DNA of 64,000 bases from Lepidodermella squamata (lineage: Eukaryota; Animalia; Gastrotricha). The position numbers and the translations under genes were made by a program. The notes beneath the pieces are model-generated. The model searched no databases. It was given only the letters and a program-made list of their open reading frames with translations, and was not told the origin of the DNA. Positions 340 to 24,348 of the stretch are shown here, one piece after another. Location: positions 2,480,001 through 2,544,000 of the forward strand of contig JBLDXI010000004.1 in NCBI GenBank assembly GCA_047495785.1, read 5' to 3'. Within the stretch, counting starts at the first letter, position 1. Every line of letters begins with the position of its first letter.

Positions 340-911
340 AGTAGAGTACAATAGCCGGTCCTAGACCAAACCCAAGGAAAGTGAAATAATCAAAGAAATT
401 ATGATTTATAGGGCTATATGGTGTGAGTGTATTTCCAAGGGGGGAGTATTGGGTTTTGAAAAAACTGGGGGTTATCGAAAAAGGGTGTATGGCTGTGAAT
501 ATGATGTATTTACCGAGTGATTCGGCATACACCCTTTTTGAAAAATTGAGGGTGGGGCGGGGGAAATTGGCAATTAGGGGAAAAATAAATGGTGAATTTA
601 TAAAAAGCGAAGAGATAATGAGGGTGCAAAGGAGAGAAAGGGAGTAAATAAATTTGGGGGAAAATTTGGGGAACAAATTGCTGGGGAAATTATTTCGAAA
701 GGGAGCGTACAAGAGGTATAACAGAGGGTAGGGGGTAGGGGTAGGGGTAGGGAAAGGTGTATGGGTAAGGGTAAGGGTGAGAGGTGAGAGGTGGGCGAGG
801 GCTGGTGAATTTGGGGGAAATTCTGAAAAACTCTGGGGAAACTGTGGGGAAATTGTGGAAAAATTCTGGGGAAAGTATTTTGATAAGGAGGGTACAAGAG
901 GTATAACGGAG
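340..911 (+). repeat. Left terminal inverted repeat of A (572 bp)
   Basis: Reverse complement of 23330-23901; one mismatch noticed (G484 vs A); purine- and G-run-rich. Confidence 0.95.
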
Positions 912-941: not shown

Positions 942-1330
942 GGAATGGGGAATCTGGAACCTGGAATCTGGAATCTGGAACAATATATAAGTGGGGCCTA
1001 ATGCATAATCTGGCGAATTCCCGGGGTCCAGAATCTGGAATCTGGAATCCGGAACCTGGAATCTGGAACAATATATAAGTGGGGGCTATTGCATAATCTG
1101 ACAAATTCCCGGGGTCCAGAATCTGGAATCTGGAATCAGGAACCTGGAACCTGGAATCTGTAACCTGGAATCTGTAACCTGGAACCTGGAACCTGGAATC
1201 TGGAACAATATATAAGTGGGGGCTATTGCATAATCTGACAAATTCCCGGGGTCCAGAATCTGTAACCTGGAATCTGTAACCTGTAACCTGGAACCTGGAA
1301 CCTGGAACCTGGAGCCTGGAACCTGGAATA
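942..1330 (+). repeat. Subterminal minisatellite: TGGAA(T/C)C / TGTAACC heptamers interleaved with three ~55-bp units
   Basis: Directly visible; unit AACAATATATAAGTGGGG..TGCATAATCTG..AATTCCC(C)GGGGTCCAG at ~979, ~1067, ~1204. Confidence 0.92.
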
Positions 1331-1367
1331 TTTTCTTTATCAAATATATATCAAAAAATAATTTATA

Positions 1368-1763
1368 ATGGTAGTGCGAAATTTGCGTAGAGATTCAGAA
1401 TATCGTAGACGAGTTAGATCGGCAATCAAGGAATATGAGACAACGCGAAAGAGTGTTAAAGAAATAGTAGAGGAATTTGACATTTCATCAAGTAGTCTAT
1501 TTTACTATAGAAATAAATCGAAAGGGCAGGGCACCCAAATTGGGGGTTTTATTGCAAGTAGGGAACCTCGTGATAAGAGCGTAAAAGCACAAACTGGTCG
1601 ATCCACTGTAGTTCAGCAAAATGAACCAATAGTACTCATCCCTAGAGGAACGTATGACCGAGAGAAAAGGGTACGAAATGATAGAGCAGACGAATCATCG
1701 ATGAAATCTAACTCGAGTCTATATGATATCCACCATGGGTATTATGATAAAGATGATGAGTAG
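1368..1763 (+). CDS. Small helix-turn-helix DNA-binding protein
   Basis: SAIKEYETTRKSVKEIVEEFDISSSSLFYYRNK fits an HTH pattern; AT-rich TATA-like upstream sequence. Confidence 0.6.
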   Translation: MVVRNLRRDSEYRRRVRSAIKEYETTRKSVKEIVEEFDISSSSLFYYRNKSKGQGTQIGGFIASREPRDKSVKAQTGRSTVVQQNEPIVLIPRGTYDREKRVRNDRADESSMKSNSSLYDIHHGYYDKDDE

Positions 1764-2846: not shown

Positions 2847-3560
2847 TCAAACGTTAGATATTTTCATACAAAATTCAACAGTTATAGGTTTGCTGGACGA
2901 CATCATGATGCTGAAAGTGTCACCATTTTCAAACTGTTCTACGAAAGTACAGTATTCGGCTATATTTCGGATCGCGTCGTAGTCGAATGAAAAATATTTA
3001 GAAATTAAGACACTGCCGTTTTTCATGAAATCACAAGTGCAACCTGGCGAGACATTTCCCCAAATTCTAAACCAAAATTGCACATTAGCCAAAATGTTTT
3101 CGAGAAAAGACAACTCATCATTAATTTGAACCAGCAAAGTGTGGGTTATAACTCTTGTTACCGGCATTTTCGTTTGGTCATTCACATGACTCTCACCAAA
3201 GCATAAAAATGTTTGGCCATCAACGTATTGCTTGTTGACTACGTCAAAAAGACCTACGGGATACGCCACGTTTGTTATCCGACCACCATTCATGTCGATG
3301 GTTCTGTCATCAGCGTACTGCAGCGGCTTATACGATTCGATAAGTTGCCTGGATTCTTTTTCATTCAACGTGTTTTCTTCCACCCAAGATTTCGATGCTG
3401 CGTCATTTTCGAAAACGGGGCGGCCAAGATTTTCAATTTTGAAATTATTTGCGTTCATATTACCCATGAGCCCCTTCTTCCCATCGGCGCGTAGAAATAA
3501 ATCTGACCCATGCAAGCTTTCCGACCATTCGCTAGGAATAAAAATTGAACTAGATTTCAT
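2847..3560 (-). CDS. Putative virion fiber/spike protein
   Basis: Two copies of a tail-fiber/YadA-neck-like motif (MNANNFKIENLGRPVFENDAASKSWVE; IDMNGGRITNVAYPVGLFDVVNKQYVD); beta-rich C-terminus with MKNG...FENGDTFSI. Confidence 0.65.
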   Translation of the reverse strand: MKSSSIFIPSEWSESLHGSDLFLRADGKKGLMGNMNANNFKIENLGRPVFENDAASKSWVEENTLNEKESRQLIESYKPLQYADDRTIDMNGGRITNVAYPVGLFDVVNKQYVDGQTFLCFGESHVNDQTKMPVTRVITHTLLVQINDELSFLENILANVQFWFRIWGNVSPGCTCDFMKNGSVLISKYFSFDYDAIRNIAEYCTFVEQFENGDTFSIMMSSSKPITVEFCMKISNV

Positions 3561-3565: not shown

Positions 3566-4039
3566 CTAAGTAATGATTAGATTTAATTTTTCATGCCAGC
3601 GTAAAATCGTATCCTTAGAACGGCCCAGAGGGATTTTATTAGCGATGTCTTCATAGCCCAATTTCATTGACAAGTACTTCAGCACAAATTCTACATTGAT
3701 CATATTTTTACCGGGAAATTCGGTGGAATAGAGCTTATCTATTTTCTGGAAGTTTGACATTATGTCATCGAGCTCATACCATTTGAGAATTAGTCCTAGT
3801 TTTCTGATTTTTGTCATGAGATGCCACTTCCGCTTGTAAGGTGGGGAACGGCTAACCCTTTGATAGTAATCTATGAAAGGGTATGCGATGGCACATTTTG
3901 GACAAAAGTTGATGTGGAGACTATGATCAATTTGCAACTGTGATGAGCACGTTTCACATTCTGTTTTAGAATGGCATTTCACACTCTTGTTTTTTATTTC
4001 GGCTAAAAGAGAGAGGCAATATTCGAATTCTTCGTCCAT
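3566..4039 (-). CDS. VLTF3-like (poxvirus A2-type) late transcription factor
   Basis: CxxC...CxxC zinc ribbon, YKRKWH, and KNMINVEFVLKYLSMKLG...IPL, matching the VLTF3 C-terminal pattern. Confidence 0.75.
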   Translation of the reverse strand: MDEEFEYCLSLLAEIKNKSVKCHSKTECETCSSQLQIDHSLHINFCPKCAIAYPFIDYYQRVSRSPPYKRKWHLMTKIRKLGLILKWYELDDIMSNFQKIDKLYSTEFPGKNMINVEFVLKYLSMKLGYEDIANKIPLGRSKDTILRWHEKLNLIIT

Positions 4040-4084
4040 AACCAGGAAAGCACTTACTACCTTTTACAAACAAAATATTTTGTC

Positions 4085-4208
4085 CTGATTCGACAAATTT
4101 GCTCTTTTTGGAGCCGACAATTTGAGAATTGCTCACTTACTTGTTTTCCGAAACCTTTCATTGTTCGTTAAAGGTTTCGGTATGCTCCTTACACTTCAAA
4201 TAATGCAT
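4085..4208 (-). pseudogene. Degenerate small zinc-ribbon gene (DUF5679-like)
   Basis: Reads MHYLKCKEHTETFNEQ*KVSENK*...GSKKSKFV, resembling MYCxKCKxxTxT...CGxKKSxFV but with stops. Confidence 0.45.
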
Positions 4209-4214
4209 TCTTTG

Positions 4215-4664
4215 CTAAGACATCAGATCTTTAAGCTTGATATCATTCATAATGGACCCGTCATTTGTGAAATCGAGGAGAATTTCAAGCTTATTGCGAT
4301 TTTTTGCCAGCTCAGACAGGAAGTAAACAACATAAAAACCGCACGCCACACTTTTAGTGTGCTGAATTTCATGAGTGGAATACCAAATGTCGCGATTACT
4401 TCGCCTCTCAATGACTTCATTGGGACAAATGAACCCAAAGCTGTCGAAATAGATTATTTCCCTATCAGTTACCTGCATTCCTACCCAGTGCGTTCCTCCT
4501 CCAAAATCATCCAAGTTGATTACATAGTATCCATTTTTCAAATGTATAGGCAAGAGATGCCTGGGGTAACATCCATTGTACTTCTTCCCAACTCTCGAGT
4601 ACATCATTTTGTCAATATCCGAATTCGAAAGTGGGAAGAAGCGCCCTAGTTTTTTGACTCCCAT
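4215..4664 (-). CDS. Adenain-like (C5) maturation cysteine protease
   Basis: VINLD..GTHWV, YFDSFG, IQ....ACGFY (His-Asp-Gln-Cys catalytic residues). Confidence 0.93.
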   Translation of the reverse strand: MGVKKLGRFFPLSNSDIDKMMYSRVGKKYNGCYPRHLLPIHLKNGYYVINLDDFGGGTHWVGMQVTDREIIYFDSFGFICPNEVIERRSNRDIWYSTHEIQHTKSVACGFYVVYFLSELAKNRNKLEILLDFTNDGSIMNDIKLKDLMS

Positions 4665-5275
4665 GGTAAATACACTCCATTTCCCTTATTCGCCTTGAAC
4701 AATGTAGGTAAAAATGTCCCTAGCAGGCTAGCAACTAGTGGAACAACGAATGAGCCACCCTTTTGCTCAATATCGCGATCAATCGAAAGTTTACTGCCCA
4801 GTGGCAATAAATTCTTATTTTCTAACATATCGACCATTTTGACTAGTTCATTCAAATCCTCTTTTGGAACTGATAGTTGTACGTTGGTCTCGTTTACGCC
4901 CTTCCCCGCTAATTTGTTACCGATCGCGTTGGTTGCGCCATTTATCAGCCCTGATACTGCACTCAGGGCCAAAGGTGCAGCAATCGTTGCGGCTTTTGCA
5001 AGTATGGGCAGGATGGGAAGTAGGCCGCCTGATTGGTTTTTCTTCAGTTGTGATAAACTAAGCTTCAATTGAACACCGGTATCGTTGGCTTTGTGCTTCT
5101 CTACTTTGTTTATTTGAGTTTGGGTAAGCATCAACTTGCGTAAATTTTCGTTTTGGTGAATAACCTGTTTGCTAAATTTAAGTGTTATTGACTTTTTGTT
5201 CTTCACCGCACCCTGGAGTTTCTCAAGCTGACTATCCGTCAGGGGCAATTCGTATTCGAAATACTTATGGCTCAT
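4646..5275 (-). CDS. Virion core protein precursor (adenovirus pX/pVII-like)
   Basis: SGGLLPILPILA and KGGSFVVPLVASLLG motifs; GxG/GG protease-type sites; basic N-terminus. Confidence 0.7.
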   Translation of the reverse strand: MSHKYFEYELPLTDSQLEKLQGAVKNKKSITLKFSKQVIHQNENLRKLMLTQTQINKVEKHKANDTGVQLKLSLSQLKKNQSGGLLPILPILAKAATIAAPLALSAVSGLINGATNAIGNKLAGKGVNETNVQLSVPKEDLNELVKMVDMLENKNLLPLGSKLSIDRDIEQKGGSFVVPLVASLLGTFLPTLFKANKGNGVYLPWESKN

Positions 5276-5300
5276 TTACCGCTAGATTAGAAATTTTGCA

Positions 5301-6680
5301 TTAGACGCTGGTAAGACTAATGTCAACAGAGTCATGCTTGTAGTTGAAGCATATCTCCTTTTCCCTTTCAATGAACGAATAAATTACAAGAGGCTTATTC
5401 ACCGCACCGACCGTCGCTTTGAATACTACAGAAACAGTGTTATCTGCTCGAGAGTTGTAAATGGAAGTAGCATCTACGTCGTCCAAGCAAAAGCAAAGAA
5501 TTCTGTACAAGTTGCAGAATTCCATGTACGAAATCTGACATCCCGTATTCAGACTTTCCCTATCGCTGTTCTGGTGCATATTCTGTTTTATGTAATTGTA
5601 TAACCGGTGAGCTTTCAGCTTAGCAAAAGAAACATTGGATTCATTAAAGGCTTCTTTGTTATTAATCAAAAGGGAATATGAAGTAACGTTCCACGTGTTA
5701 TATATCTGCGTGAGTTTCTTCGGATATTCCTCGTCTGAGTAATCGGGGCAAAGAACAATATAAACCCAATTGGGTTTCCTTATTTCAGTGCTGATTGTGT
5801 ACTGAATATTCGTGGTATTAGCAGCAAATTGACAGGACTGATATGGATCAATCGATATCCATTTATGAATTTTAGTGAATCCCTCGTTGAACTTTTTCAT
5901 TATTGAAAGTTTCTGTTGGTTCATGAGCGTTACTTCCGGGATGTACATATTAGCCCGATTGAAATAATAAGTTAATCCTTCAGCTGTATCTTTATCAGCC
6001 GCGGCAATCACATAAACCAAAGGTCGATTATAGCTTGGGGTGAGAATAATCCTAAATCGAGACTTCGTGAAAATTCCGTGATATGAATTGAAAAAGGGCA
6101 AATCTTTCAGATATAAAGTGACGGTGGCCTCAGCAGATTTAACATAACTGCTTCGCGTTATCAAACCCTTGTTAGCTGCAGCTTTCGAAGCATCGAAAGT
6201 GTCAGCCGTCACATCAGCAATTAGCGTTGTGCTTCCCAAAGCCAACGGGCAGTCTTTCGAAAACAACACTTCTTCCCCTAAACTATTGGCGTACTCAGGA
6301 CTCCATTTCAAAAGGAAATTGATGTTGGCCCAATGTTCGAGGAACCGCAGCTCTTCGATTTTGTGATCCGAATCCGATATTTGAACTTCAATATTGTCAA
6401 ACAGGCTCAACACGTGATTCCGAATGGCATACTTGTCAGTATTCACGAACGCGGCTCCATTCTTCCTTTTAATTTGCAATTGAAACTCCAAGTACCCCTC
6501 TCTGACTAGTAAATAATTGTCTTTTAGGTTGTAGCTGGACAATATTAATTTCGAGGGTTGTGAATTTTGATCTTGAGTGAAATTCTGTGCTGGCGTTTCC
6601 GTCCATGTCTTTTTCTCAAAGACCCGATCTTGAATTTCAGTAGTCTCGAAAATGTTATTGACGATCTCTTGTTGAAGCAT
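5301..6680 (-). CDS. Major capsid protein (double jelly roll), intact
   Basis: 459 aa, beta-rich; SLFDNIEVQI, YIPEV, RKPNWVYIV; position in the morphogenesis block. Confidence 0.85.
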   Translation of the reverse strand: MLQQEIVNNIFETTEIQDRVFEKKTWTETPAQNFTQDQNSQPSKLILSSYNLKDNYLLVREGYLEFQLQIKRKNGAAFVNTDKYAIRNHVLSLFDNIEVQISDSDHKIEELRFLEHWANINFLLKWSPEYANSLGEEVLFSKDCPLALGSTTLIADVTADTFDASKAAANKGLITRSSYVKSAEATVTLYLKDLPFFNSYHGIFTKSRFRIILTPSYNRPLVYVIAAADKDTAEGLTYYFNRANMYIPEVTLMNQQKLSIMKKFNEGFTKIHKWISIDPYQSCQFAANTTNIQYTISTEIRKPNWVYIVLCPDYSDEEYPKKLTQIYNTWNVTSYSLLINNKEAFNESNVSFAKLKAHRLYNYIKQNMHQNSDRESLNTGCQISYMEFCNLYRILCFCLDDVDATSIYNSRADNTVSVVFKATVGAVNKPLVIYSFIEREKEICFNYKHDSVDISLTSV

Positions 6681-7011
6681 AATTTACCAAAGGATTAGAT
6701 TTTTTAAATTCAACTTTTTTGAAACCAGAGCCCGAATATGAACTTATATTATTTTTAATTTTGCGTTCGAGCTCCTCTATGGCTTTAAGATTAGTTGTTT
6801 CATGACTAGGCAGAACTTTTTCAGCCAACTTCGTTGCTACAAAACTTCCCACTTTATCTCCAGCAGCTTCTGAACCAGATTTCAGCGCTGCTTTGACAAA
6901 ATTTTGGGCTGGTTCAGCTGATACTGCTATTATTTTCGATAAAATGTGTTTACCAACGTCGACGAAACCTCGGCCAGAAATGTAAACGCGCTTTCTTTTT
7001 CGATTATTCAT
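6655..7011 (-). CDS. pVI/cupiennin-like membrane-lytic peptide precursor
   Basis: NLS-like RKRKR, then ISGRG followed by amphipathic FVDVGKHILSKII; later GSG site. Confidence 0.7.
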   Translation of the reverse strand: MNNRKRKRVYISGRGFVDVGKHILSKIIAVSAEPAQNFVKAALKSGSEAAGDKVGSFVATKLAEKVLPSHETTNLKAIEELERKIKNNISSYSGSGFKKVEFKKSNPLVNYASTRDRQ

Positions 7012-7035
7012 AATTCAGCAATAACTAGATAAGCA

Positions 7036-7782
7036 CTAGATTATATCTATACCTATCCCCCACCTACTTTCGACGAAGTAAATCTCGTTTCCCTCTTGAT
7101 TGGTGAGCCAGACTCGAATATTCTGCGTGTTCGCGTTTGTGCACATTAGGAACCTTTTCTCGTTCGGGATGTAGTTGACGTGTTCCCCAAATTTTTTGTT
7201 GATAGGGCAAGTAAAAATAACTGTGTTATATTCGGGGATGACGCTATTATTAACCACGGAACAATGAACAAACATTGTATCCAGCCCCATAGTCACATCA
7301 GGGACGTTTTGAGAATTGAAATCGTGGTCGTAGGAGCCTACGTTGACCCCGAGAAACCGGGCCATAGCGTCAGTTTCTACCATCAAACGATAATTCTCCG
7401 CAATCCTAACGCTAATGCAACTGAATACGGGGTTGACACTAATATTGATGCCGAAAATTTCTGCTCCTTTCGCGCTGTCAACGGCAAAATGTCCGTTTAA
7501 CTTCATCTGGAAATGCAAATAATTGTTAAAATCTTGGAAGGTGTACGTTCCATCAGGAAAAACTGTTTCGAATATTTCTTCGTTCAGCGAGTATTTCAAT
7601 GTATTGTTTCCGTAACGAGCAGAAACGTTGTGAAACGTATCGCTGAAATGAATATAACTAACTGCAATTCGCCTTCCAGTGAAGTCTATTTTATCATTGA
7701 GGTATCGGTCGATGGTGTTATTTCGAGAACTTCGATTATTTGAAAGATACTCTAGTGGTAAGAAAATCGGGCTCAGACTCAT
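7036..7782 (-). CDS. Minor capsid (penton) protein
   Basis: FHNVS, FPDGTYTFQDFNNYL, MFVHCSVV, IRVWLTNQEG: Maverick penton motifs. Confidence 0.85.
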   Translation of the reverse strand: MSLSPIFLPLEYLSNNRSSRNNTIDRYLNDKIDFTGRRIAVSYIHFSDTFHNVSARYGNNTLKYSLNEEIFETVFPDGTYTFQDFNNYLHFQMKLNGHFAVDSAKGAEIFGINISVNPVFSCISVRIAENYRLMVETDAMARFLGVNVGSYDHDFNSQNVPDVTMGLDTMFVHCSVVNNSVIPEYNTVIFTCPINKKFGEHVNYIPNEKRFLMCTNANTQNIRVWLTNQEGNEIYFVESRWGIGIDII

Positions 7783-7806
7783 TTTATTTGGAAGCTAGAT
7801 AATTCT

Positions 7807-8961
7807 CTATATACTACAAACTGTTGTGTATTCTTCCTTCGTTATTTTTCCATGCTTCAGCAACAAGTCCGCTATAGACACTAATTCGTTCCTAATTGCT
7901 TCATTGTTATTACCTGCTTTAATTTCTCCTAAACAATGCAGCATACGCTTTTGTGCATCCTGTAAGGTCACAAAAAGCGCAGAACCGGACTGCCTAGAAA
8001 TTGCGAGTTCAGATCTTACGTTGGAGTGAGGTTTCGGTTGGTATCCGGTCCTACGACAAATTTCTTGGAAGTGTGAAAAATCTTCTTGGGTGTATTTGTA
8101 CTTTTTCGGTTCATATCGCTTCAAAATGAGATTTCTCACACCATCGGAAATTTGCTCATCAAACACTCTGCTTTGGTTCTTTTTTCTGACGCGGAGCCAC
8201 CCGTCGAGTAAGTCTTCCTTGCGTACATAAAATCGCCCAAACCTTTGGAGATTTTTTGGGATTGGTTTAGTGAAACCGTCGCCTAGTTGTTTGCTTTTTA
8301 ATGCTTCGCGATAGTTCCTCAAAACTGCGATGTCGCGCTTAATTCTATTATAGTCTTCTGAATCTCTTTTCCCCGCTCGTGTGAGACTAGAGAGCCTGGC
8401 CCCCAATACCTGTCTGTTGTATGTGGCCAAACTCACTACGGCTTCTTCTATGTCCTCTTGTTTAATTTGCTCAATTGTTGGGAAATTATGCTGACGGATG
8501 ATAGTGTTCATTTCGTCTGTGGTAAATGTCCCATCTTGAGCATCAGGTTCCTTCGACGAGTCAGAGTCTTGATCACTCTCATCATCTTGCGAATTTCGCG
8601 ACGAGGCTAACCTATTTTTCACAGGACTCTCATACTCAAGTTTAGGAATTTTCAGAGCCACAGGGGATGCAGAGGCAGAAATAGTTGGAATGCCATGTTT
8701 AGCTATTAGTGGTTTCTTTTTTACAACTAATTCCTTAATAGAATTTTGCAAACTACGTATGGCTTCAGTGGTCGGTCGTTGGTTGATTGCTGTTTGCATG
8801 GTCGCCAGTGGGCTGGGTTCCGTTTCCATCCCAAATTTGTGCTTGAGCGCATAAGAATCGTGACTTGCAAGCGCGAGGTTTTTATCATACAGTTTTTCTT
8901 CTCTATCTAATTGCTCCAAAATTTTTATCTGCTCGGGGATCGTGAGTTCTTTGATCGGCAT
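7807..8961 (-). CDS. Conserved Maverick hypothetical (probably virion) protein
   Basis: C-terminal RMLHCLGEIKAGNNN...ELVSIADLLLKHGKI motif; ATG at 8961 matches the B start. Confidence 0.75.
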   Translation of the reverse strand: MPIKELTIPEQIKILEQLDREEKLYDKNLALASHDSYALKHKFGMETEPSPLATMQTAINQRPTTEAIRSLQNSIKELVVKKKPLIAKHGIPTISASASPVALKIPKLEYESPVKNRLASSRNSQDDESDQDSDSSKEPDAQDGTFTTDEMNTIIRQHNFPTIEQIKQEDIEEAVVSLATYNRQVLGARLSSLTRAGKRDSEDYNRIKRDIAVLRNYREALKSKQLGDGFTKPIPKNLQRFGRFYVRKEDLLDGWLRVRKKNQSRVFDEQISDGVRNLILKRYEPKKYKYTQEDFSHFQEICRRTGYQPKPHSNVRSELAISRQSGSALFVTLQDAQKRMLHCLGEIKAGNNNEAIRNELVSIADLLLKHGKITKEEYTTVCSI

Positions 8962-8993
8962 TTGGTTTACCACTAGATTTTCTCGATCAGATT

Positions 8994-9639
8994 TTACCGA
9001 ATTAACCGAATGAGTTCAGTGTTGAAGAATTCAAGATAGAGTATCAGGTCATGGGAAAAATTCCGTTCCGACTCATTTAAACGGAAAACATTCTAGTTTA
9101 ACCCAGCTTAAACCAGCAAATATTGCGATTTCCGGTGTAAATTACGAAATCCGGCCATCGGAATATTACCGAATGAGTTTAGAGTTGCTGGAAGGATTCA
9201 AGACACGAGGCTGAAGGATTTTTTGAGAACGGAGGGCCGGTATTACGCCTCTTGGCTCGCTGCTAACTGGCCGGAGGGCCGGTATTACGCGAGCCTTTAG
9301 CTCGCTACTAGCGGTCCTACGGACCGGTACTCGGGCGGTGTTCGACCACCGGCTAGCTCCAGTCCCAGTCTCCCCGCTACTTCGCGCACTGGGCTAGCGG
9401 CCCTTAGGGCCGGTATGCTCCTTCGGAGCTAACGGGTCTTTTGACCCGGTACGCAGAACACAGAGTATCAGGCCATGGAAAATAATGCGTTTAGACTCAT
9501 TTTAACGGTAAACTTTCTAGTTTAACCCAGCTAAAAACAGCAAATATTGCTATTTCCGGCGAAAGCGGACGTAAATCCGGCCTCAGAAGTATTGAGCGAG
9601 TTTGGGAATTTACCAGGGGCGTGCTCAGGCCCCAGCTGA
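8994..9639. other. A-specific 646-bp non-coding insert: two ~140-bp direct repeats flanking a GC-rich hairpin cluster
   Basis: Absent from B (22-bp gap there); repeats at ~9038-9180 and ~9463-9603; flanked by ATCAGATT at 8986-8993 and 9640-9647. Confidence 0.75.
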
Positions 9640-10340
9640 ATCAGATTCGCCGACAAAAATTCCCGTATAATTTGCTCTAAGCTTCAGCGATTTATGCTTT
9701 ATCACGCTGTCTATTATAAAAGAACCGTGATTATTATTGGACGAAACGCTCAATTCGTACTTTTTCAGGAACCCAGGCTTTTCTATTTCTGCTGCATAAA
9801 TTCTGTGAATTGTTTGCAGTTCGCGTCCATCATTCAGCTTTTTCAAAACAATAAACTGCGCATTGTCGCGAATTATTTTCGGAATTTTGAAATATGACTG
9901 ACTCAAATAAACCACGGAGCAATTGTACTTTCGCGACCTGATGTAGAGATCGCCGATGTATTTCTCTTGGTTTTTAGCATTTTCCAAACAAATGTCATCA
10001 AAGACATACAAGTGCTGATACTTCTTGTCAAGCTTATCAAGGGGCACGACATCCGCAATATCAGTGGAAAAGTGGATAAGTGACTCGTTTACCCCTTTCA
10101 TTTTCAACTCGGCTTCTTTAGCTTTCTGCAAATTTATCAAAAACTGGTATTTGTCTTCATCCAAGGTTTTAGAGTAAATGTGCAGCTTATGAAAAACAGA
10201 ATGATATTGAGCAAATCATTAGTTTTCCCGCTATTACTTGGACCGATAATAATTGTTCGGAAACAATGCTGCGGGTAAAAAGGGGAAATATTGAGTGGCG
10301 TAGACTCGCTTTTTGGAATTATTTCATCAAAATTGATCAT
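9625..10340 (-). pseudogene. A32-like packaging ATPase, frameshifted
   Basis: Walker A GPSNSGKT, Walker B YVFDD, SRKYNCS, LSQSYF; 7-bp deletion near 10200 relative to B. Confidence 0.92.
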
Positions 10341-10351
10341 TTTAATTCAGG

Positions 10352-10365
10352 TTAGAAATTTCTAA
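10352..10365. promoter_or_regulatory. Palindromic candidate bidirectional late promoter TTAGAAATTTCTAA
   Basis: Perfect palindrome between the divergent ATPase and PLA2-integrase genes; conserved in B at 29773-29788. Confidence 0.6.
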
Positions 10366-10386: not shown

Positions 10387-12160
10387 ATGTTCGACGGAAT
10401 TATCAATAACTTGCCGGTAGAATTGCATCTTCCCTCTTACCCGGCCAAAGGCGAGCATCGTCCCAACGGATCATTCAACAACACGCAGAAATACAGTTAC
10501 GCTGGGCCAGGTACAAATTTCGTCCAGCGCATGAAGGAAGGATATAAGGGAATCAATGATTTGGACGAAGCAGCTAAAACTCATGACTACTACTATTGGA
10601 AATTCAAAGATCGTGAAATGCGGACAAGAGCAGACAGACTTCTAGCCGAAGAAGCTTTCAAGATAGCCAACGACGATTCTAAAAACGGATACGAGAGAGC
10701 CATGGCTGCCTTCGTTTTCAAAACCTTTCACGAAGGAGGCTTAGCCGATAGATTCCATGGAGGCCGAGTGCCTACAGGATACGAGCTTTCCATTCGGGAA
10801 GGCGACTTCCATGACGGTCAAGGGCTGACGGGCCATGAGCTTCCGCCTCAAGAACGCGAGTGCTGCGGAGAAGGATACGAATTGCGGCAAAGGAAACCTG
10901 TGGATTATACTGGAACAAAATATATCGGCGAGGTTCCGCAACCAAAACGATCAAGGAAAAAAGCAGAAAGCAGTGCCAAAACAACGCAAGCAGTCCCAGC
11001 GTCGAAAAAAGAGACGGATGCAGATCAAAGCTTAAGCAAAGTAAAATTCCACGTTCTGTCCGAGGAACTTCACAAACCGGCCCGGAAGCATTTTCCCCGC
11101 AGGCGAGTGTATATTCACGACATCGACGAAACCTGGGGCATGGATATCGTGTTTCTGAGCGATTTATCCGAAGAAAATAATCAGCATAAGTATTTACTCA
11201 CGATTATAGATTGCTTTTCCAAATATGCGTGGGCTGTCGCACTTAAGAGCAAGGATGCGAAAAATGTTTTTGATGCATTTTTGTCTGTGGTCCGAGAAAG
11301 CAACAGGAAGCCCAAAAATATGTGGGTAGATCAAGGCAGTGAATTTTACAATGCTGTGTTCACGAAATGGCTAAAAGCTAATAATGTTAACAGGCAGGGT
11401 GCGAATTACAGGGGTGCTGGGGTGTCGCGACACCCCAGCTCGGGGACCTTAATCAGAGGAAGGTTGAAAAAACCCACAGGGGGGACCCTTTGGTTTCTTC
11501 GGCTGGGTCTTAGAAAACAAGTAGAAAACACCTCAGCTCCCAGATCCTACTTCGCACACTGTTAACAGGTATTCGACTTATGAGAATTTTCACAATCCCA
11601 TAATAGAAAGGTTCAACCGAACTTTGAAAACCAAGATGTGGAAAAGGTTCACACTGGACAACACCCGTAACTGGGTTGGCATGCTCGATAGCTTGGTCAG
11701 TGATTATAATAATTCTCTGCATCGGTCGATAGGAATGACTCCCATCGAGGCCAGCGATCCCAAAAACCACAACAAAGTCCATTCTAGGCTGAATCCCCCG
11801 GAACGAAAAGAAAAATTGGAAAAGCCGAAATTTGCGCTGGGTGACGTGATTAGGATAAGCCGCGTAAAAGGCGCATTCGAAAAAGGGTATCACCCTTCAT
11901 GGAGCGAAGAACTATTGCGAGTTGTAAAAATAAATGACACATATCCGAGAACATACCAGATAGAAGCAATGGACGGCGAGCCTGTTTTCGGTAGTTTTTA
12001 CGAGCAAGAAATGCAAAAATCGAAACAGCAGGTAGATGACGTGTATAGAGTTGAGAAAATTTTGGATAGGAAGAAAGTCAAAGGAAAAGAGTTGGTTTTA
12101 ATAAAATGGTCGGGTTATGACAAACCCACATGGGAAAATGCAGAAAATGTTATTGATTAA
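10387..12160 (+). pseudogene. PLA2-retroviral-like integrase-chromodomain fusion, interrupted by a MITE
   Basis: YAGPGT...DEAAKTHDYYY (parvovirus-type PLA2); WGMD, IDCFSKYAW, VDQGSEF, IERFNRTLK (DDE core); YRVEKIL...LIKWSGYD..TWE (chromodomain); frame restored by removing 11395-11569. Confidence 0.92.
11395..11561. mobile_element. 167-bp hAT-like MITE
   Basis: 8-bp TSD TTAACAGG; TIR CAGGGTGCGAA / TTCGCACACTG; related copies at ~49175 and ~58100. Confidence 0.9.
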
Positions 12161-12320: not shown

Positions 12321-12566
12321 CTAAACCTTGTTGTTAGAAATAATTGCTTTGATTTGTTTATACTCCTCTACCATTGCTTTTCGCTTCTCATAATACTTCT
12401 TTTGCGCAGTTTTCAAAGCTGACTTATAGCCTTCTTTTCTTTCTTCATCTGTTCTATATTTTATCCATCTTGGATAACTGGCACATCCACTTGTGATGAG
12501 TTGGGTCTTCTGACTCTGTTCTGCTGGCTGAGGCATGTCATTAACTTTATGAATTCCGACAGACAT
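12321..12566 (-). CDS. Small basic putative DNA-binding protein
   Basis: KYRTDEERKE...KKYYEKRK; syntenic with and similar to B 31351-31644. Confidence 0.65.
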   Translation of the reverse strand: MSVGIHKVNDMPQPAEQSQKTQLITSGCASYPRWIKYRTDEERKEGYKSALKTAQKKYYEKRKAMVEEYKQIKAIISNNKV

Positions 12567-12827
12567 AGGATTTATATTATTATTTATATAAATATATAAG
12601 AAAATATTTTTTTAAGTATTGTTTCATCATTCTCGACTGACTGTGGGGTCTGTTGAAAATTGCCACCTGCCGAGCTTTAATTCTCCTGGGAAAAATGAAA
12701 ATTTAACTCACTGATCCATAACAGCTATCCATAATCTTAACTGGCGCGTTGAAAAGGCTTAAAAAAATAATCTCCTCACAATATATATAGATATATAAAT
12801 CCTCGATTTTCCCTCGTAAATTCCACA

Positions 12828-15800
12828 ATGCTTAGAAAAGAACAGAAAATCCCTCATCCCGTGGCTCCCCACAGGCAAATCATAGTTAATGGAACAGCGT
12901 TCACCAAGTTTTTGAGTCAAAACTATTACTATGACAAAAGACGAAAAGTCTTGAAAGAAGGAGTAAAGCTTCCCGATGGATCCGTAATTCCTGTCGATTC
13001 ACCCAAGTTACGCCGTATGCTGAAAACTGGTAGTTATTTTCATGATAGACAAAATAGGAAACTGATGGAGTACGCCAATAATAATACGATAGGTACCGTT
13101 TTCGACCCAGAAAATGGTGCAGAAATCCTAACCGGTAGTCAAAGATACGAAGAAATAAAGAAAAATAACTATGTTTTAAAAGGGCGAGGATTCGTCCAAA
13201 TCCCCGTTCGGAGGGCCGAATCAGTCATTAACCCCACAACAAATCGCCCAATAAAGATTGGAGGCGCGGCATTTAACCGGCTGATCCGCGCGGGTTACAT
13301 TTACATTGCTTCAATGAATAGTTTCGAAAAATCAGATTACGTCCGCCAACTGCGACCAGATGACTTCGGCACTTTCGTAGAAGTCACGTCAATGCTCAAG
13401 CTGTTACCAATAGTGCAAGGCTTCGATTATTTGAAATACACCTCTGTGATACGCCCGAAAGTGATTGATGAATATCGACGACAATTGAATTCTCTCGGCC
13501 CAGTTAAAGTCGTGCTTCATGCTGAGGTGGAATTCATTCACAAAATAACGAGGAAGTGCATCACAATTTTTAAATGGAGCTCTTCAAGCAACGCGGCACC
13601 TTTAGTCACAAATGCGGCGGACATTCCCGACGTTGTCGACGGCCTCTTTTCCATGCTTGCAGACGGCATTCGAGACTTTGAAGAGAGAGGTAGTCAGTTC
13701 GTATTTAATAAAATGGTTGACACAGATGTCAACACCTTCCGGTATCATCCGACTGCCGGAGGGAGCTACATTCCCACGCCGGATTACATCAAACGGAAAC
13801 ATGCTGTAGTCAACGTTAAAAACTCTGACGATAAATGCATTATTTGGAGTATTTTAGCCTGTAGGTACCCGCCAAAAGATCACGTGGACCGAGTCAGCAA
13901 TTACAGGTGGTGTTTGAATAGTGTGCAATACGATGGTATAGATTTTCCCATAAAATATGAAGATATCGATAAATTAGAGGATTCAAATGTTTTAAATTTG
14001 AATATAATTGAATATGATGATGAAAAACGAACATTCTCCCCCTTTTACATATCCAAACGGAGTTATCACGAGGAAATTAACCTGTTGCGTACAACTGATA
14101 ACGAAAAGGCCCACTATAGCTGGATCAAAAACCCTAGTGCGTTGTTTGCATCCACTAACAAGAACGAACACGCGCGTTTTTGGTGTTTCAAGTGTTTTAC
14201 CAGCTTCACTTCAGAAGAAGTGAGACAAAACCACATTCTGGATAACAAATGCGTAGGTTTCGAAAAAAATATACGAGTGCATTTTCCAAAAAGCAATACA
14301 ATTAAATTTAATAACGTATACAAACAGCTTCGCTTGCCTTTTGCTTTTTATTGCGACATCGAGTGCTTTCTTGTTGACATTAACAAAAACCACGGGACTA
14401 ACTCGATTGCGTATCAACACCACCGGGCAAATTCGTTCGGGTGCTATTTCAAAAGTGACATCGCGTCACTTCCCTCGAGATACCAATCATTTGAAAACTG
14501 CGCCAGCTTCCTTGAGTATCTTTTGTCTAAGACAACGCACCTAATCAAGTTTCTCACTTCAACAAATGTTCCAATGAATCTGAGCGAAACCGAGGAAAGG
14601 TCCTTCAGGTCGGCGTCAATTTGCCATATTTGCAGCTGCCCGGTTTCCGAAGACGAAAAAGTTCGAGACCATGATCATCTAACAGGCAGATTCCGTGGTG
14701 CAGCTCATAATTCGTGTAATTTAGAGTACAGCTACAAAAAAACGGCAATACCCGTGATTTTCCATAATTTGAAAGGGTATGACAGTCACTTGATTCTGAA
14801 ATCTCTGGGGGAAGTGCTTGTAGAGTTCAACAAGGGTAGGTTGAAGAAAAATCTCAAGCCGCTGAAAATCAACATTATTGCGCAGAGTTCCGAAAAATTC
14901 ATCGGTTTCTCGGTTGGCCGGTTGCGATTCATCGACAGTTTTAATTTCATGTCCACTGGCCTGGACCAAATGGTTGAGAATCTGAAGAAGTCCGGGGGGA
15001 AATTTGAACATTTGAATTCGAACTTTTCTGAATTCACAGATGAACAGCGATGTCTGCTGTTGAAAAAAGGGGTTTATCCTTACGATTATATGAATTCCCC
15101 CAGGAGGTTCCAAGAAACTATGTTGCCAGCTAAGGAACATTTCTCGAGCAAGTTAAAATCGAACAGCTTGGTGACCGATGACATCGGCAGAATAGAAGAT
15201 GCGCCTGTTCCGATCTCCGACGAGGAATACAATCACGCTAAAAACGTGTGGGATAAATTAAAATGCAAAACCATGAAGGATTATCACGATGCATATTTGA
15301 AAACTGATGTCCTTCTCCTAGCAGATTGCTTCGAAAATTTCAGAAGTATTTCGATGAAGAGTTACTCGCTGGATCCTGCTCATTTTTTCACCACTCCAGG
15401 GCTAACATGGGACGCCGGAAAAAAGTACACCAAAGCCTCTATCGGTATTTTGAATAACAATGAAATGTTGGAATTTGTCGAAAAAAGTGTGCGTGGGGGC
15501 ATAAGTGGCGTAGTTCTTAGGCACGCGAAAGCTAACAATCCTTACATGAAAAATTATGACAAGTCAATGCCACACTCTTATATCACATGCTTAGACGCAA
15601 ATAACCTGTATGGCTGGGCAGCTTCTCAAATGCTTCCGATCGGAGACTTCGTGTTTGTCGATGCCTCTGTTTTCACCCAAGACTACATTTTGCGCCTGAG
15701 CGATGAAGCTGAATTTGGATACATGCTCTCAATCGACGCAATGTATCCGCGTAGACTTCACGACGCTCATGACGCGTTTCCATTTTTCCCAGAACATACG

Positions 15801-17405
15801 GAATGCGCTCCAAGCCCCTACATGGAATCAATGATGGCCAAATTGAAGATGCCTAATCCAGATAATGGACCTAAGCTAACTCAGAATTTATGCCACAAGA
15901 CGAACTACGTGGTTCATTATAGAAATCTGAAGCAAGCTCTGGAGGCAGGCCTGATTTTGACGAAAGTCCACAAAGTTCTCCGCTTTAGACAGTCCAAATG
16001 GTTGGAGCCCTATATCGACTTGAACACATCGATGAGGAAGAACGCGAAAACGGACTTTGACAAGGACTTTTACAAGCTGATGAACAATTCGATCTTTGGA
16101 AAGACATGTGAAAATGTCAAAAAGCGGATTGACATCAAGCTGGCGACAACCCCATGCGAGCTGCAAAAGCTGATTAACAGACCGAATTTTAAAAATGCGA
16201 CTAGGGTTAGTGAGAGCTTATACTCAGTAGACATGGCTAGAACCTCCATACTTTACGATAAGCCCATAATTGTCGGAGCGTGTATTTTAGAATTGAGTAA
16301 GCTTTTGATGTATGATTTTCACTATAAAGTAATTAAAGCCCAATACGGAGACAAGGCCAAATTATTATTCTTTGACACAGATTCGCTTTGTTACCACATC
16401 GAAACCGACGATATATACGCGGACATGGAAAATTGGAAAGAACATCTCGATTGCTCGGCGTACCCGTTGAACCATAGGCTGCATTCCATGGAAAACAACA
16501 AGGTAATTGGGAAATTCAAGGACGTGTCGACCGGAGTGATTGAAGTAACGGGTGCAGATGGCGCGAAAAGGCCAGAAAATATTCTGGAACAAATAACTGA
16601 ATTCGTCGGCCATCGTTCAAAATCGCTAGCGTTTACTACGGAGGTTGTCAGCGCTGTTACTGTTGAAAGGAACTCACCCAACCAAGTAGTAAAAGCCAAA
16701 GGAGTTGTTAAGCATTGTATCGGAAATATAATTAATTTTCAAAACTATAAGAGTTCCTTATTAAACAGTGAAATTGAAAGGGTTCGATTTCGGCAAATTC
16801 GATCCGTGAATCACGAGTTATACAGCATTCAAAGTACCAAAGTTGCCCTTTGTCCTTATGACGATAAAAGGTGGGTTAAAGCTGACGGGTTCACGTCATT
16901 CGCCCACGGCCATTTCCGGATAGCCAAGGAGCATGAACAATTTAGGGTGGATCAGCTTGGTAAGAAATTGGACACGTTGAAGTCCTTATCGAGTGCATGC
17001 CAATATTCACGCATCAAATTGAAAAATATTTTATACGATAATTTGAGTAAAGAAAAATGTACGGACATCGCTTCATTTTGCCGAAATTTTGATGCAACTT
17101 TCAAAAAAATTGGGCACGAACTCGAAGAATTAGACAACTTGTGGTTTCAATCGGGGCAACGCCCAGCCGACTATCTACCTCAGGCGCATGTTATAGCCGA
17201 CATAGAAGACAGAGAGGTACTTGAAACTTGGCTGAAAAATAACTCCACACACGATTCTTCTTTAGAATGCTTGCTTCGCGAAGGATTGTTTCCCAAAAAG
17301 ATTCCAAAAATAGCGGTAAATGAATCATCTTTGAAAGAACCACTCTCGGTTATTGCGAAACGTGCACAAACGCGGGCCAAAGAGAAGGAGGGCTCGGGTC
17401 TTTAA
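12828..17405 (+). CDS. polB: Protein-primed family B DNA polymerase (pPolB), intact, with EndoVII-like insert
   Basis: Exo YCDIEC, FHNLKGYD; motif A LDANNLYG, motif B KLMNNSIFGK, motif C DTDS; CHIC...RDHDHLTGRFRGAAHNSCN; DDKR. Confidence 0.97.
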   Translation: MLRKEQKIPHPVAPHRQIIVNGTAFTKFLSQNYYYDKRRKVLKEGVKLPDGSVIPVDSPKLRRMLKTGSYFHDRQNRKLMEYANNNTIGTVFDPENGAEILTGSQRYEEIKKNNYVLKGRGFVQIPVRRAESVINPTTNRPIKIGGAAFNRLIRAGYIYIASMNSFEKSDYVRQLRPDDFGTFVEVTSMLKLLPIVQGFDYLKYTSVIRPKVIDEYRRQLNSLGPVKVVLHAEVEFIHKITRKCITIFKWSSSSNAAPLVTNAADIPDVVDGLFSMLADGIRDFEERGSQFVFNKMVDTDVNTFRYHPTAGGSYIPTPDYIKRKHAVVNVKNSDDKCIIWSILACRYPPKDHVDRVSNYRWCLNSVQYDGIDFPIKYEDIDKLEDSNVLNLNIIEYDDEKRTFSPFYISKRSYHEEINLLRTTDNEKAHYSWIKNPSALFASTNKNEHARFWCFKCFTSFTSEEVRQNHILDNKCVGFEKNIRVHFPKSNTIKFNNVYKQLRLPFAFYCDIECFLVDINKNHGTNSIAYQHHRANSFGCYFKSDIASLPSRYQSFENCASFLEYLLSKTTHLIKFLTSTNVPMNLSETEERSFRSASICHICSCPVSEDEKVRDHDHLTGRFRGAAHNSCNLEYSYKKTAIPVIFHNLKGYDSHLILKSLGEVLVEFNKGRLKKNLKPLKINIIAQSSEKFIGFSVGRLRFIDSFNFMSTGLDQMVENLKKSGGKFEHLNSNFSEFTDEQRCLLLKKGVYPYDYMNSPRRFQETMLPAKEHFSSKLKSNSLVTDDIGRIEDAPVPISDEEYNHAKNVWDKLKCKTMKDYHDAYLKTDVLLLADCFENFRSISMKSYSLDPAHFFTTPGLTWDAGKKYTKASIGILNNNEMLEFVEKSVRGGISGVVLRHAKANNPYMKNYDKSMPHSYITCLDANNLYGWAASQMLPIGDFVFVDASVFTQDYILRLSDEAEFGYMLSIDAMYPRRLHDAHDAFPFFPEHTECAPSPYMESMMAKLKMPNPDNGPKLTQNLCHKTNYVVHYRNLKQALEAGLILTKVHKVLRFRQSKWLEPYIDLNTSMRKNAKTDFDKDFYKLMNNSIFGKTCENVKKRIDIKLATTPCELQKLINRPNFKNATRVSESLYSVDMARTSILYDKPIIVGACILELSKLLMYDFHYKVIKAQYGDKAKLLFFDTDSLCYHIETDDIYADMENWKEHLDCSAYPLNHRLHSMENNKVIGKFKDVSTGVIEVTGADGAKRPENILEQITEFVGHRSKSLAFTTEVVSAVTVERNSPNQVVKAKGVVKHCIGNIINFQNYKSSLLNSEIERVRFRQIRSVNHELYSIQSTKVALCPYDDKRWVKADGFTSFAHGHFRIAKEHEQFRVDQLGKKLDTLKSLSSACQYSRIKLKNILYDNLSKEKCTDIASFCRNFDATFKKIGHELEELDNLWFQSGQRPADYLPQAHVIADIEDREVLETWLKNNSTHDSSLECLLREGLFPKKIPKIAVNESSLKEPLSVIAKRAQTRAKEKEGSGL

Positions 17406-17961: not shown

Positions 17962-18444
17962 TCACATTTCAGAAGCAAAACGAGACAGCGACTGGTACCA
18001 TTGTCTGGCATCATCATTTGACTTGAGCAATGTAAATATATCAATTGACAACCTCAACATTTTTTCGACACCGACATTCAAATACATTAGATGCGAAAAA
18101 TCTTTGAAAAGTTTATACAAGCGGAGGCATTTGTTTATCCAGGACTTACTAGAGACATTACGCTGATGGAGAACTGTTTTGGCCAGAATAGTTGCAAAGC
18201 CTTTTCTACCGGTTTTTTTAAAGTATTTAGTTTTATACACGAACAAAGAGAAACCAAGCTCGTAAGCAGAATACAATGTTTTAGAGCGAAAATTCAAGAA
18301 ATTGACGAATTTAATTTTCAAATCAGATATCAAAGCATCTTCCGTGAGGACATCGGGCAGAAATGTGTCGGCGGAATCTGTCGGCGGGATCGATTGTTGC
18401 GGTTCGCAGCATTGAAGAAATCGTAGCAAATCGATTTGTGCCAC
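17962..18444 (-). CDS. DUF3102-like helical protein (probably last exon of a spliced gene)
   Basis: AYELGFSLFVYK...SKSWINKCLRLYK; homolog at B 37689-38108; acceptor-like sequence upstream. Confidence 0.55.
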   Translation of the reverse strand: MAQIDLLRFLQCCEPQQSIPPTDSADTFLPDVLTEDALISDLKIKFVNFLNFRSKTLYSAYELGFSLFVYKTKYFKKTGRKGFATILAKTVLHQRNVSSKSWINKCLRLYKLFKDFSHLMYLNVGVEKMLRLSIDIFTLLKSNDDARQWYQSLSRFASEM

Positions 18445-18469
18445 ATCCTTTGAAAAAATGAAAAATTAA

Positions 18470-18751
18470 TTACATATCGTGATGGCAGGAAACAGTAGTA
18501 ATACTTACTTTTTTATTTGTTGCTGTTGCTGGGGAATTCGCTTCATTGCCAATTTCATTCGTAACAATGCACAAAATGTCGGTTATTTCCTTCTTTTCTC
18601 CAGGTGATAACTCTGATTTCAAGCTGAATAAGAGACATTCACAAATTATAAATCTAGTGGTGTTTTTTAAAACGTACCGTATGGTTAGATAAGATGTTGC
18701 TTTTCGAACGAAGCAAGCCAACGTGTTTGAATCGAGCATTTCTTCACTCAT
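18470..18751 (-). CDS. Hypothetical protein or exon
   Basis: 93-aa ORF directly upstream of 17962-18444. Confidence 0.3.
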   Translation of the reverse strand: MSEEMLDSNTLACFVRKATSYLTIRYVLKNTTRFIICECLLFSLKSELSPGEKKEITDILCIVTNEIGNEANSPATATNKKVSITTVSCHHDM

Positions 18752-23329: not shown

Positions 23330-23901
23330 CTCCGTTATACCTCTTGTACCCTCCTTATCAAAATACTTTCCCCAGAATTTTTCCACAATTTCCCCACAGT
23401 TTCCCCAGAGTTTTTCAGAATTTCCCCCAAATTCACCAGCCCTCGCCCACCTCTCACCTCTCACCCTTACCCTTACCCATACACCTTTCCCTACCCCTAC
23501 CCCTACCCCCTACCCTCTGTTATACCTCTTGTACGCTCCCTTTCGAAATAATTTCCCCAGCAATTTGTTCCCCAAATTTTCCCCCAAATTTATTTACTCC
23601 CTTTCTCTCCTTTGCACCCTCATTATCTCTTCGCTTTTTATAAATTCACCATTTATTTTTCCCCTAATTGCCAATTTCCCCCGCCCCACCCTCAATTTTT
23701 CAAAAAGGGTGTATGCCGAATCACTCGGTAAATACATCATATTCACAGCCATACACTCTTTTTCGATAACCCCCAGTTTTTTCAAAACCCAATACTCCCC
23801 CCTTGGAAATACACTCACACCATATAGCCCTATAAATCATAATTTCTTTGATTATTTCACTTTCCTTGGGTTTGGTCTAGGACCGGCTATTGTACTCTAC
23901 T
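23330..23901 (-). repeat. Right terminal inverted repeat of A (572 bp)
   Basis: Reverse complement of 340-911; the ORF track shows mirror-image ORFs at both ends. Confidence 0.95.
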
Positions 23902-24334: not shown

Positions 24335-24348
24335 AATTTACCAAAGGA

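Follow-up and report, generated by a model that had tools for sequence, protein, structure and literature searches.

A 64,000-nt stretch of the genome of the gastrotrich Lepidodermella squamata (contig JBLDXI010000004.1 of assembly GCA_047495785.1, positions 2,480,001 to 2,544,000; hereafter the window) holds two related Maverick/Polinton elements, A and B. Element A carries two classes of promoter-like sites of giant-virus type. Class I sites, which resemble the late promoter of mimiviruses, lie before the protein-primed DNA polymerase (pPolB) and small regulatory genes, while class II sites, built around the tetramer TCTA, lie before the virion genes. The element encodes one candidate reader for these sites, a protein similar to late transcription factor 3 of viruses (VLTF3), and no RNA polymerase. 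We tentatively favour, at rather less than an even chance, the reading that this factor directs the host's RNA polymerase II (Pol II) to both promoter classes; its role, and the start sites, timing, binding and polymerase discussed below, are proposals from sequence and predicted fold.

Two classes of promoter-like sites

The late promoter consensus reported for the Megamimivirinae is W8-T[AC]T-N4-W5-RTAKA (PMC11464507). The window contains three perfect matches to it, compared with none in each of 100 shuffles, and seven matches with at most one mismatch, compared with 0.69 expected; the additional ones are the site of the A pPolB and three sites that do not lie ahead of a start. A matrix built from four sites (those of pPolB and of the small basic genes in A and B) placed a held-out site before the small helix-turn-helix (HTH)-like open reading frame (ORF) directly after its own training sites, and also recovered a degenerate site before the VLTF3-like gene, whose score is reached by 0.6% of 2250 ATGs. 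The layout is an AT-rich stretch, TCT, nine bases and ATATA, with the core at -33 to -35 in three of the small class I genes and the VLTF3-like gene. With local shuffling of dinucleotides over the entire intergenic regions, p was 0.0035 for A and 0.001 for B. The giant-virus early motif AAAATTGA was found in none of the 13 leaders of A and B tested.

An earlier note on this DNA had described the pPolB leader as TATA-like and had set a host TATA box for pPolB against a viral late motif for the virion genes. A more accurate description of the leader is that it matches the late consensus of mimiviruses, and the contrast does not hold, as a related late motif of giant-virus type stands before pPolB and the regulatory genes. 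These leaders thus form a second class of putative promoters, a point that goes beyond that note. A TATA box lies 28-31 nt upstream of the transcription start. Read in this way, five of the six class I genes would have their start inside the ORF, on which ground the canonical TATA reading was rejected; the second half of class I fits an initiator. The African swine fever virus (ASFV) late promoter likewise has TATTT at -15 to -11 and TATATA at the start, and that of vaccinia has TAAAT (PMC5294985). Since the exact spacing is kept in polymerase modules that are only ~50% identical between A and B, a sequence-specific reader of giant-virus type is suggested.

Before the virion genes, the gaps between TCTA and ATG that the earlier note gave for seven genes of A were found at every site (Table 1), as were those in B (15, 14, 13, 12 and 12 nt); B is not an independent sample, because its structural modules share 85-91% DNA identity with those of A. 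TCTA is absent from the 45 nt upstream of both pPolB genes, the protease and the VLTF3-like gene, again as noted before. The claim that it precedes the morphogenesis genes stands for these seven, out of eight rather than seven, since the protease is also a morphogenesis gene and lacks it. When the seven 60-nt leaders were shuffled 2000 times, no tetramer was common to all seven in any 9-nt window, and six of seven occurred once, which bears out the positional enrichment. The background frequency of TCTA is 2.0-2.8% (17 of 841 ATGs in A, counting the seven sites; 18 of the 862 ATGs of the flank; and 2.8% of windows rich in AT).

The extended class II motif reads WWWTCTAR followed by a TAAA-like box. 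The three bases 5' of TCTA are A or T in all seven leaders and the 3' flank is mixed; core, position and 5' flank fit the late promoter of Cafeteria roenbergensis virus (CroV) and mavirus, whose TCTA has AT-rich flanks on either side and is indeed the published motif that the earlier note had invoked. Aligned on TCT, the virion leaders have an A at +12 in 7/7 and TAAA-like boxes in most; the agreement of this second box with the position of the class I second box is suggestive only, as the A-rich ATG context contributes. A TCT core is common to both classes, as is an A-rich box 9-10 nt downstream of it, which is mostly too near the ATG for an ordinary TATA box. Measured against the Megamimivirinae late consensus, the virion-gene sites (n=12) have 3-9 mismatches, so that none comes within one mismatch. 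A comparison of A with B finds all 20 motif bases unchanged and 13 of the 66 leader bases altered (p about 0.012). The pVI-like gene has a second TCTA 11 nt upstream of the first.

The ATPase and the fusion gene of a phospholipase A2 (PLA2)-like domain and integrase start 46 nt apart on opposite strands, and a perfect palindrome between them supplies the fusion gene with a TCTA of its own (gap 22). A palindromic TCTA that is identical in A and B fits a double-stranded DNA element better than an RNA signal. On the plus strand, this TCTA is directly followed by an upstream ORF of 2-3 codons.

Fifteen distant loci (L001-L015) were obtained through the ATPase (29-47% identity). The bipartite motif, at one mismatch or less, precedes 10 of 18 ORFs in L012 (1.09 expected) and 4 of 6 in L001 (0.40 expected). 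It also occurs in L008 (3/9), L007 (2/12), L013 (2/7), L014 (2/10), L009 (1/11) and L015, whose 6/6 was given little weight, being mostly TAT in very AT-rich DNA; none was found in L002-L006 (0/21 ORFs), L010 or L011. L012, one end of which is cut, has the gene set of A, with a collagen gene immediately following the protease. In L012 and L001 the bipartite motif also stands before virion genes, which in A and B use the TCTA variant, and in the relatives TCT is followed by any base. The VLTF3 profile matched nothing in any of the 15 loci.

The loci L008-L011 are probably virophage-like elements: they are Polinton-like, with primase/helicase-type ORFs (by Pfam on L008 and L009) and AAAATTGA before many non-structural genes (before 4/9, 7/11, 4/7 and 4/11 ORFs, respectively). 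In L004 (723-758) and L005 (1220-1253), divergent starts of the conserved gene and the ATPase lie ~33 nt apart and share TCTATATA and CACGCTGG words, and such closely packed promoters may be widespread among Mavericks of this group. Close relatives were not found in scans with the MCP (viral_contigs, metagenomes), ATPase, VLTF3-like protein and pPolB, or in genome_contigs. A PF04947 search that covered one of 5 records gave no match, and an HHalign comparison of the MCP alignment with the ORF at the capsid position of L012 was not significant (probability 0.7).

A VLTF3-like factor with a single predicted helical domain

The ORF at 3566-4039 matches the VLTF3 family PF04947 below the cut-off (E=0.011, 15.9 bits vs 25), and we class its putative product as VLTF3-like rather than as a canonical member. 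Its 12 homologues are 22-46% identical; one exceeds the PF04947 cut-off, five more match below it, and one, P0019, exceeds the cut-off for the A2L zinc ribbon. The seven closest homologues have invariant CxxC/CxxC, YKRKWH and NM motifs, the four invariant cysteines belonging to an N-terminal zinc ribbon. In the Atlas, two VLTF3-bearing clusters came top (0.96 and 0.95, with the family on 29% and 18% of members) at a score just below the recognition threshold, followed by an unnamed cluster of 154 aa.

The predicted model (pLDDT 86, pTM 0.57) comprises a zinc ribbon and one five-helix domain. In BFVD, VLTF3 proteins head the list of its fold matches, which also contains viral TFIIBs, and at least 4 of the 7 matches at E<0.001 are named VLTF3; the structural comparison proposed in the earlier note thus came out in favour of its assignment, which fold and family evidence together support. 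In the PDB, chains from initiation complexes of Pol II and Pol III rank first among the fold matches, those for Pol II being chains that we take to be TFIIB, and a sequence search with the VLTF3-like profile returned only weak zinc-ribbon matches. The helical region of VLTF3 is expected to have two repeats. The factor, at 157 aa, has one helical domain and aligns with long gaps to targets of 300-500 aa, so that the full-length helical region was not matched. We therefore describe it as a predicted VLTF3-like half-TFIIB, made of a zinc ribbon and one TFIIB-type cyclin fold. The poxvirus A2/VLTF3 has been reported to derive from TFIIB (Mutz et al., 10.1101/2022.11.22.517515).

VLTF3 is already known from polintoviruses of stony corals (PMC11131425, citing Krupovic and Koonin 2016) and from polinton-like viruses (PLVs) of Tetraselmis (PMC9356565). 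Three of 14 VLTF3-like proteins match MCP homologues in the length of their longest contig (9393, 10040 and 25098), a linkage drawn from lengths only, which suggests that the factor is a regular gene of the clade. A second zinc-ribbon-like stretch, with a weak match to the VLTF3-like profile (E=0.001) and no helical domain behind it, lies in the cargo of A at 22367-22615.

Candidate readers of the promoters

In the scheme that we favour, the VLTF3-like factor would act as a cut-down TFIIB and bring host Pol II to class I and class II sites, the second box serving as initiator, much as it does in the late promoters of ASFV and poxviruses. A small amount of factor would first come from leaky expression of the provirus; it would then boost the class I genes and, once replication has taken place, switch on those of class II. 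The lineage would have taken the factor from the giant-virus gene pool, ending its need for the factor of a helper. We prefer the element's own factor because a single reader accounts for the retention of the promoters as well as of the gene, and because nucleocytoviricots without an RNA polymerase keep VLTF3, as reported for ariadnaviruses (10.64898/2026.08.29.747986). Signs of nuclear life are the target duplication, the cargo with GT-AG intron-like segments and the lack of AAAATTGA in all tested genes.

A number of observations weigh against this scheme. The promoter of the VLTF3-like gene is itself of class I, and the cycle would therefore need another starter. A Pfam search of A revealed no VLTF2-, TBP- or polymerase-like partner, and ariadnaviruses and mriyaviruses retain VLTF2 too (10.64898/2026.08.29.747986, PMC11253617). 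The PDB fold matches of the factor are weak (Foldseek E at least 0.03); in VIA, Z is at most 7.6, the top match is a chain of an MCM-ORC complex, and cyclins score like TFIIB (Z 6-7). The class I consensus is AT-rich, and the 54-nt AT core of A alone gives p=0.07 (0.011 with TCT fixed). The protease has neither motif class. One contig of run X3 alters the first base of the pVI TCTA, and family variants over 6660-7060 (40 of 49 differences) affect 1 of 8 motif positions compared with 3 of 29 leader positions, showing no extra motif conservation. Finally, L012 and L001 carry the bipartite motif with no VLTF3 seen in either of these incomplete loci; the motif is therefore older and wider than the clade, and does not require VLTF3 in cis. 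The self-encoded late programme of the earlier note thus keeps its two premises, the VLTF3-like identity and the match to the TCTA late motif, but related elements with a TCT motif and no VLTF3 seen mean that the motif alone does not demonstrate self-sufficiency.

The main rival, which we consider possible though doubtful, is that the polymerase and late factors of a helper nucleocytovirus read class I, and that the VLTF3 of the element retargets the polymerase, or competes for it, at the TCTA promoters of the virion genes. Class I coincides with the late consensus of the Megamimivirinae (PMC11464507), TCTA is the late motif of CroV and mavirus, virophages use the late promoters of their helpers, and the geometry resembles the TATTT core and TATATA start of ASFV (PMC5294985). 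A helper would explain class I and the relatives that carry the motif without a visible VLTF3 (L012 and L001) at least as well as the element's own factor does, L008-L011 have AAAATTGA before many ORFs, and PLVs have been reported in association with entomopoxviruses of insects (PMC11296320). However, this host has no known helper and the window shows none, and since a helper brings its own VLTF3, a copy kept across the clade needs an extra reason. The accessible text of the Tetraselmis study offers no clear precedent, naming VLTF3 only in a figure legend and not among the genes common to four helper-triggered genomes (PMC9356565). The intron-like cargo and the nested germline insertion point to nuclear activity, and the leaders lack the helper early motif that precedes genes in the Phaeocystis globosa virus virophage (PgVV), which is not required of all virophages.

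Host factors alone might instead read compact core promoters, consisting of AT-rich nucleosome-free DNA with a TA initiator or of a TATA box for the opposite gene, leaving VLTF3 to another job or to tuning; we regard this as improbable. Most animal Mavericks have not been described with VLTF3 and yet make capsid-gene RNA, which counts in its favour. Expression has been noted in corals (10.64898/2026.06.19.733378), the five loci L002-L006 do without the bipartite motif, the 105-nt intergenic region of B has TATA-like words on both strands, and the A pPolB fits TATA geometry. That geometry nevertheless fails in the other class I genes, and A, B and distant relatives from different contexts all keep the exact spacing. 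Moreover, we are aware of no host element that places TCT a fixed distance away from an initiator. We give very little credence to TCTA being an RNA signal, namely a branch point (CTAAY), a splice acceptor (TAG) of an adenovirus-like late unit or the stop codon of the upstream gene. The seven genes do all lie on one strand, with TCTAA(T/C) at four sites and TCTAG at three, and few AATAAA occur between genes. However, the MCP and ATPase leaders contain no AG between motif and ATG, by which a splice origin was rejected, and pyrimidine tracts are missing, whereas the introns of the flank end in T-rich CAG/TAG. The palindrome between divergent genes and the free fourth base in the relatives also speak against an RNA signal, and the stop-codon origin was rejected since a stop codon occurs at only 1 of 12 sites (B pVI).

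How the element might have come to depend on its own factor is a separate matter. A once helper-reliant lineage could have captured a one-repeat, 157-aa TFIIB mimic, with animal Pol II now reading giant-virus late promoters; we think this unlikely, if well worth considering. An ATPase tree of 37 rows (B, 27 of 95 homologues and nine loci, with the broken A copy excluded) places B within a starred clade of 11 and does not fix its relation to L001/L012 and other clades, for which reason the order of events in such a capture from a helper is not established.

Architecture of the elements and relation to known systems

Element A has the terminal inverted repeats, 6-bp target duplication (334-339 and 23902-23907), pPolB, rve integrase, A32-like ATPase, cysteine protease and double jelly-roll major capsid protein (MCP) of a Maverick/Polinton. 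It is nested in the MCP gene of B, which it splits at residue 144; the remainder of that gene lies at 1-339, and the left arm of B, where its VLTF3 would be expected, is outside the window. The minus strand of A encodes, in order, the ATPase, conserved gene, penton-like, pVI-like, MCP, core, protease, VLTF3-like and fiber-like proteins, and the plus strand the PLA2-integrase fusion and pPolB. In A the ATPase frame is broken near 10200 and the integrase is interrupted; in B the MCP, conserved gene and integrase are all broken. Contigs of run X1 had a depth of 73 on the flank side compared with 307-653 for single contigs over the structural genes (depth does not equal copy number), consistent with A belonging to a multi-copy family.

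Table 1 Features of elements A and B and their promoter-like sites (positions in the window; gap, nt between TCTA and ATG)
Feature	Position	Strand	Remarks
Element A	340-23901		Maverick/Polinton, both ends present; 23.6 kb, integrated
Left terminal inverted repeat of A	340-911	+	572 nt, perfect; begins AG
Right terminal inverted repeat of A	23330-23901	-	572 nt, perfect match to left
Small HTH-like ORF	1368-1763	+	131 aa; possible regulator; Pfam HTH matches all sub-threshold
Fiber-like protein	2847-3560	-	237 aa; PHROG tail fiber E=6.9e-12
VLTF3-like factor	3566-4039	-	157 aa; frame open
Adenain-like cysteine protease	4215-4664	-	PF00770 E=0.0039, below cut-off; start overlaps core gene end
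Putative core protein	4646-5275	-	label from the earlier note; weak similarity to an L012 gene
Double jelly-roll MCP	5301-6680	-	low-confidence model (pLDDT 53) matches double jelly-roll capsids, best E=5.7e-9
pVI-like small protein (putative)	6655-7011	-	
Penton-like minor capsid protein (putative)	7036-7782	-	homologues in L001, L006, L012, L014
Conserved Maverick gene	7807-8961	-	
A32-like packaging ATPase	9625-10340	-	PF04665 in both pieces of broken A copy; above cut-off in B
PLA2-like domain, rve integrase and chromodomain fusion	10387-12160	+	PF08398, PF00665 (E=8e-14), PF00385
Small basic ORF	12321-12566	-	divergent from pPolB
A pPolB	12828-17405	+	polymerase motifs; 35-38% identity to L003 and L012 polymerases
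Element B core	23902-36006		MCP 5' part, pVI-like, penton, interrupted PZ-like gene, intact ATPase, broken integrase, pPolB
Class I-like site, HTH-like ORF	1326-1350	+	2 mismatches; held out, rank 5 of 127,952 positions
Degenerate class I site, VLTF3-like gene	4056-4080	-	3 mismatches; rank 14 of 127,952
Class I site, small basic ORF	12585-12609	-	perfect
Class I site, A pPolB	12763-12787	+	one mismatch
Class I site, B AT-hook ORF (31351-31644)	31663-31687	-	perfect
Class I site, B pPolB	31720-31744	+	perfect; ends 5 nt ahead of ATG
Class II TCTA, fiber-like	3578-3581	-	gap 17; within last VLTF3 codons
Class II TCTA, core	5288-5291	-	gap 12
Class II TCTA, MCP	6696-6699	-	gap 15
Class II TCTA, pVI-like	7026-7029	-	gap 14
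Class II TCTA, penton-like	7796-7799	-	gap 13
Class II TCTA, conserved gene	8974-8977	-	gap 12
Class II TCTA, ATPase	10353-10356	-	gap 12
Palindrome, 14 bp, perfect	10352-10365		TCTA on both strands, between divergent ATPase and PLA2-integrase; identical in B at 29774-29787
TCTA sites of B	24350, 24666, 25436, 29042, 29775		

PF21738 was found in 2 of the 14 aligned MCP proteins. The penton-like protein had no family match in Pfam or PHROGs and is homologous to syntenic genes in the relatives; the conserved gene is presumably the one called PZ-like. No polymerase match was obtained for pPolB in Pfam, PHROGs or PDB sequence searches, and its motifs were assigned with patterns that we assume to be those of the family. 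Both pPolB genes contain an endonuclease VII-like stretch, and the start of the B copy (31750-32400) has several short repeats of the type NP-x-T-x-R/K-x-I, of which A has fewer. A parvovirus-type PLA2 domain is in frame with the integrase in both elements (10387-10800 and 29809-30200). The integrase is interrupted in both; in A, a host-repeat-like insert near 11400-11580 matches 49160-49306 and 58058-58252.

Just inside the left repeat of A, an array of the 7-nt repeat GGAA(T/C)CT (929-1330) includes three copies of a unit with TATATAAG, preceded by ATTGCATAAT- or ATGCATAAT-like words; it resembles what we take to be a host-type enhancer/TATA array ahead of the first genes. Between the ATPase and conserved gene of A lie ~525 nt of non-coding, partly GC-rich DNA with internal direct repeats (9081-9607), which are missing from B and skipped by one contig of run X2. 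The conserved gene of B is split by a ~2.4-kb insertion within 26000-28400 with short inverted ends (26020-26076 and 28315-28371). Among the cargo of A, the gene at 19605-20504 has two GT-AG intron-like segments, a weak PB1 match in exon 1 (E=0.013) and a last exon that appears helix-turn-helix-like by eye. The ORF at 17965-18751 resembles, by eye, the B ORF at 37689-38177, which suggests that B extends beyond 38 kb; neither had a Pfam match, and the pair was not among the best 20 tblastx matches. The flank contains rhodopsin-family-like exons (7tm_1 E=0.025, below cut-off), a C-type lectin (E=4e-6) and short GT-AG introns, in keeping with an animal host. Adjoining the lectin exon, the gene at 56887-58024 combines an AbfB domain (E=1e-15), possibly acquired laterally, with a Ser/Thr-rich stalk and DUF4215.

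Integrated Maverick-type elements with a VLTF3 homologue are thus known from corals (PMC11131425) and Tetraselmis (PMC9356565); the accessible text of the coral study mentions neither 'promoter' nor 'motif', whereas here two putative promoter classes accompany a one-repeat factor. Mavirus and type 4 endogenous mavirus-like elements (EMALEs), CroV and ChlorV share with A a TCTA with an AT-rich 5' flank just before genes (PMC8547959, PMC13196603, PMC5294985). Mavirus and the type 4 EMALEs also share the rve integrase, pPolB and double jelly-roll capsid, but live in protist hosts with a proven helper; in A, the host is an animal, TCTA occurs only before virion genes and the integrase, and a VLTF3-like gene is part of the element itself. 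The Megamimivirinae late promoter, shared with Sputnik and Zamilon (PMC11464507, PMC11998528), recurs in perfect or near-perfect form before pPolB and small regulatory genes, while the virion genes of A use the TCTA variant and no helper was identified. Ariadnaviruses have VLTF3 and no viral RNA polymerase, and mriyaviruses have VLTF3 without most of the machinery (10.64898/2026.08.29.747986, PMC11253617); both are larger free viruses that keep VLTF2 (ariadnaviruses also TFIIB), unlike the 23.6-kb integrated A with its shorter factor. The closest gene content, including the PLA2-like domain, pPolB, integrase, protease, ATPase, MCP and penton-like gene, is that of Alpha (Mayetiola-class) adintoviruses or group 2 Mavericks (PMC8502044; 10.64898/2026.06.19.733378), in which PLA2 is not fused to the integrase as in A; the accessible text of the adintovirus paper does not mention promoters (PMC8502044). 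No description of giant-virus-type promoters in animal Mavericks was found in the literature searched, which held few subscription papers and no supplements or figures (PMC11296320 could contain one). Element and factor are thus of a known kind, and the putative two-class promoter code is what we did not find described for animal Mavericks.

No virion of an animal Maverick has been seen (10.64898/2026.06.19.733378), and on the questions of capsid-gene expression and helper dependence in these elements, element A offers two putative promoter classes and one small candidate reader within a young multi-copy family. If it is self-sufficient, it would reveal how a core factor of giant viruses, VLTF3, cooperates with Pol II of the host; in viruses that lack a polymerase, the polymerase partner of VLTF3 is so far only inferred. 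If the capture reading is also true, one protein would serve as a viral transcription switch, and the element would be a living intermediate between virophage-like dependence and autonomy. If its promoters are read by a helper, it would be a virophage-like element in an animal germline, and its promoter code would be a prediction for that of a large DNA virus not yet seen. Either outcome bears on the debate between a virophage-first origin and nuclear escape.

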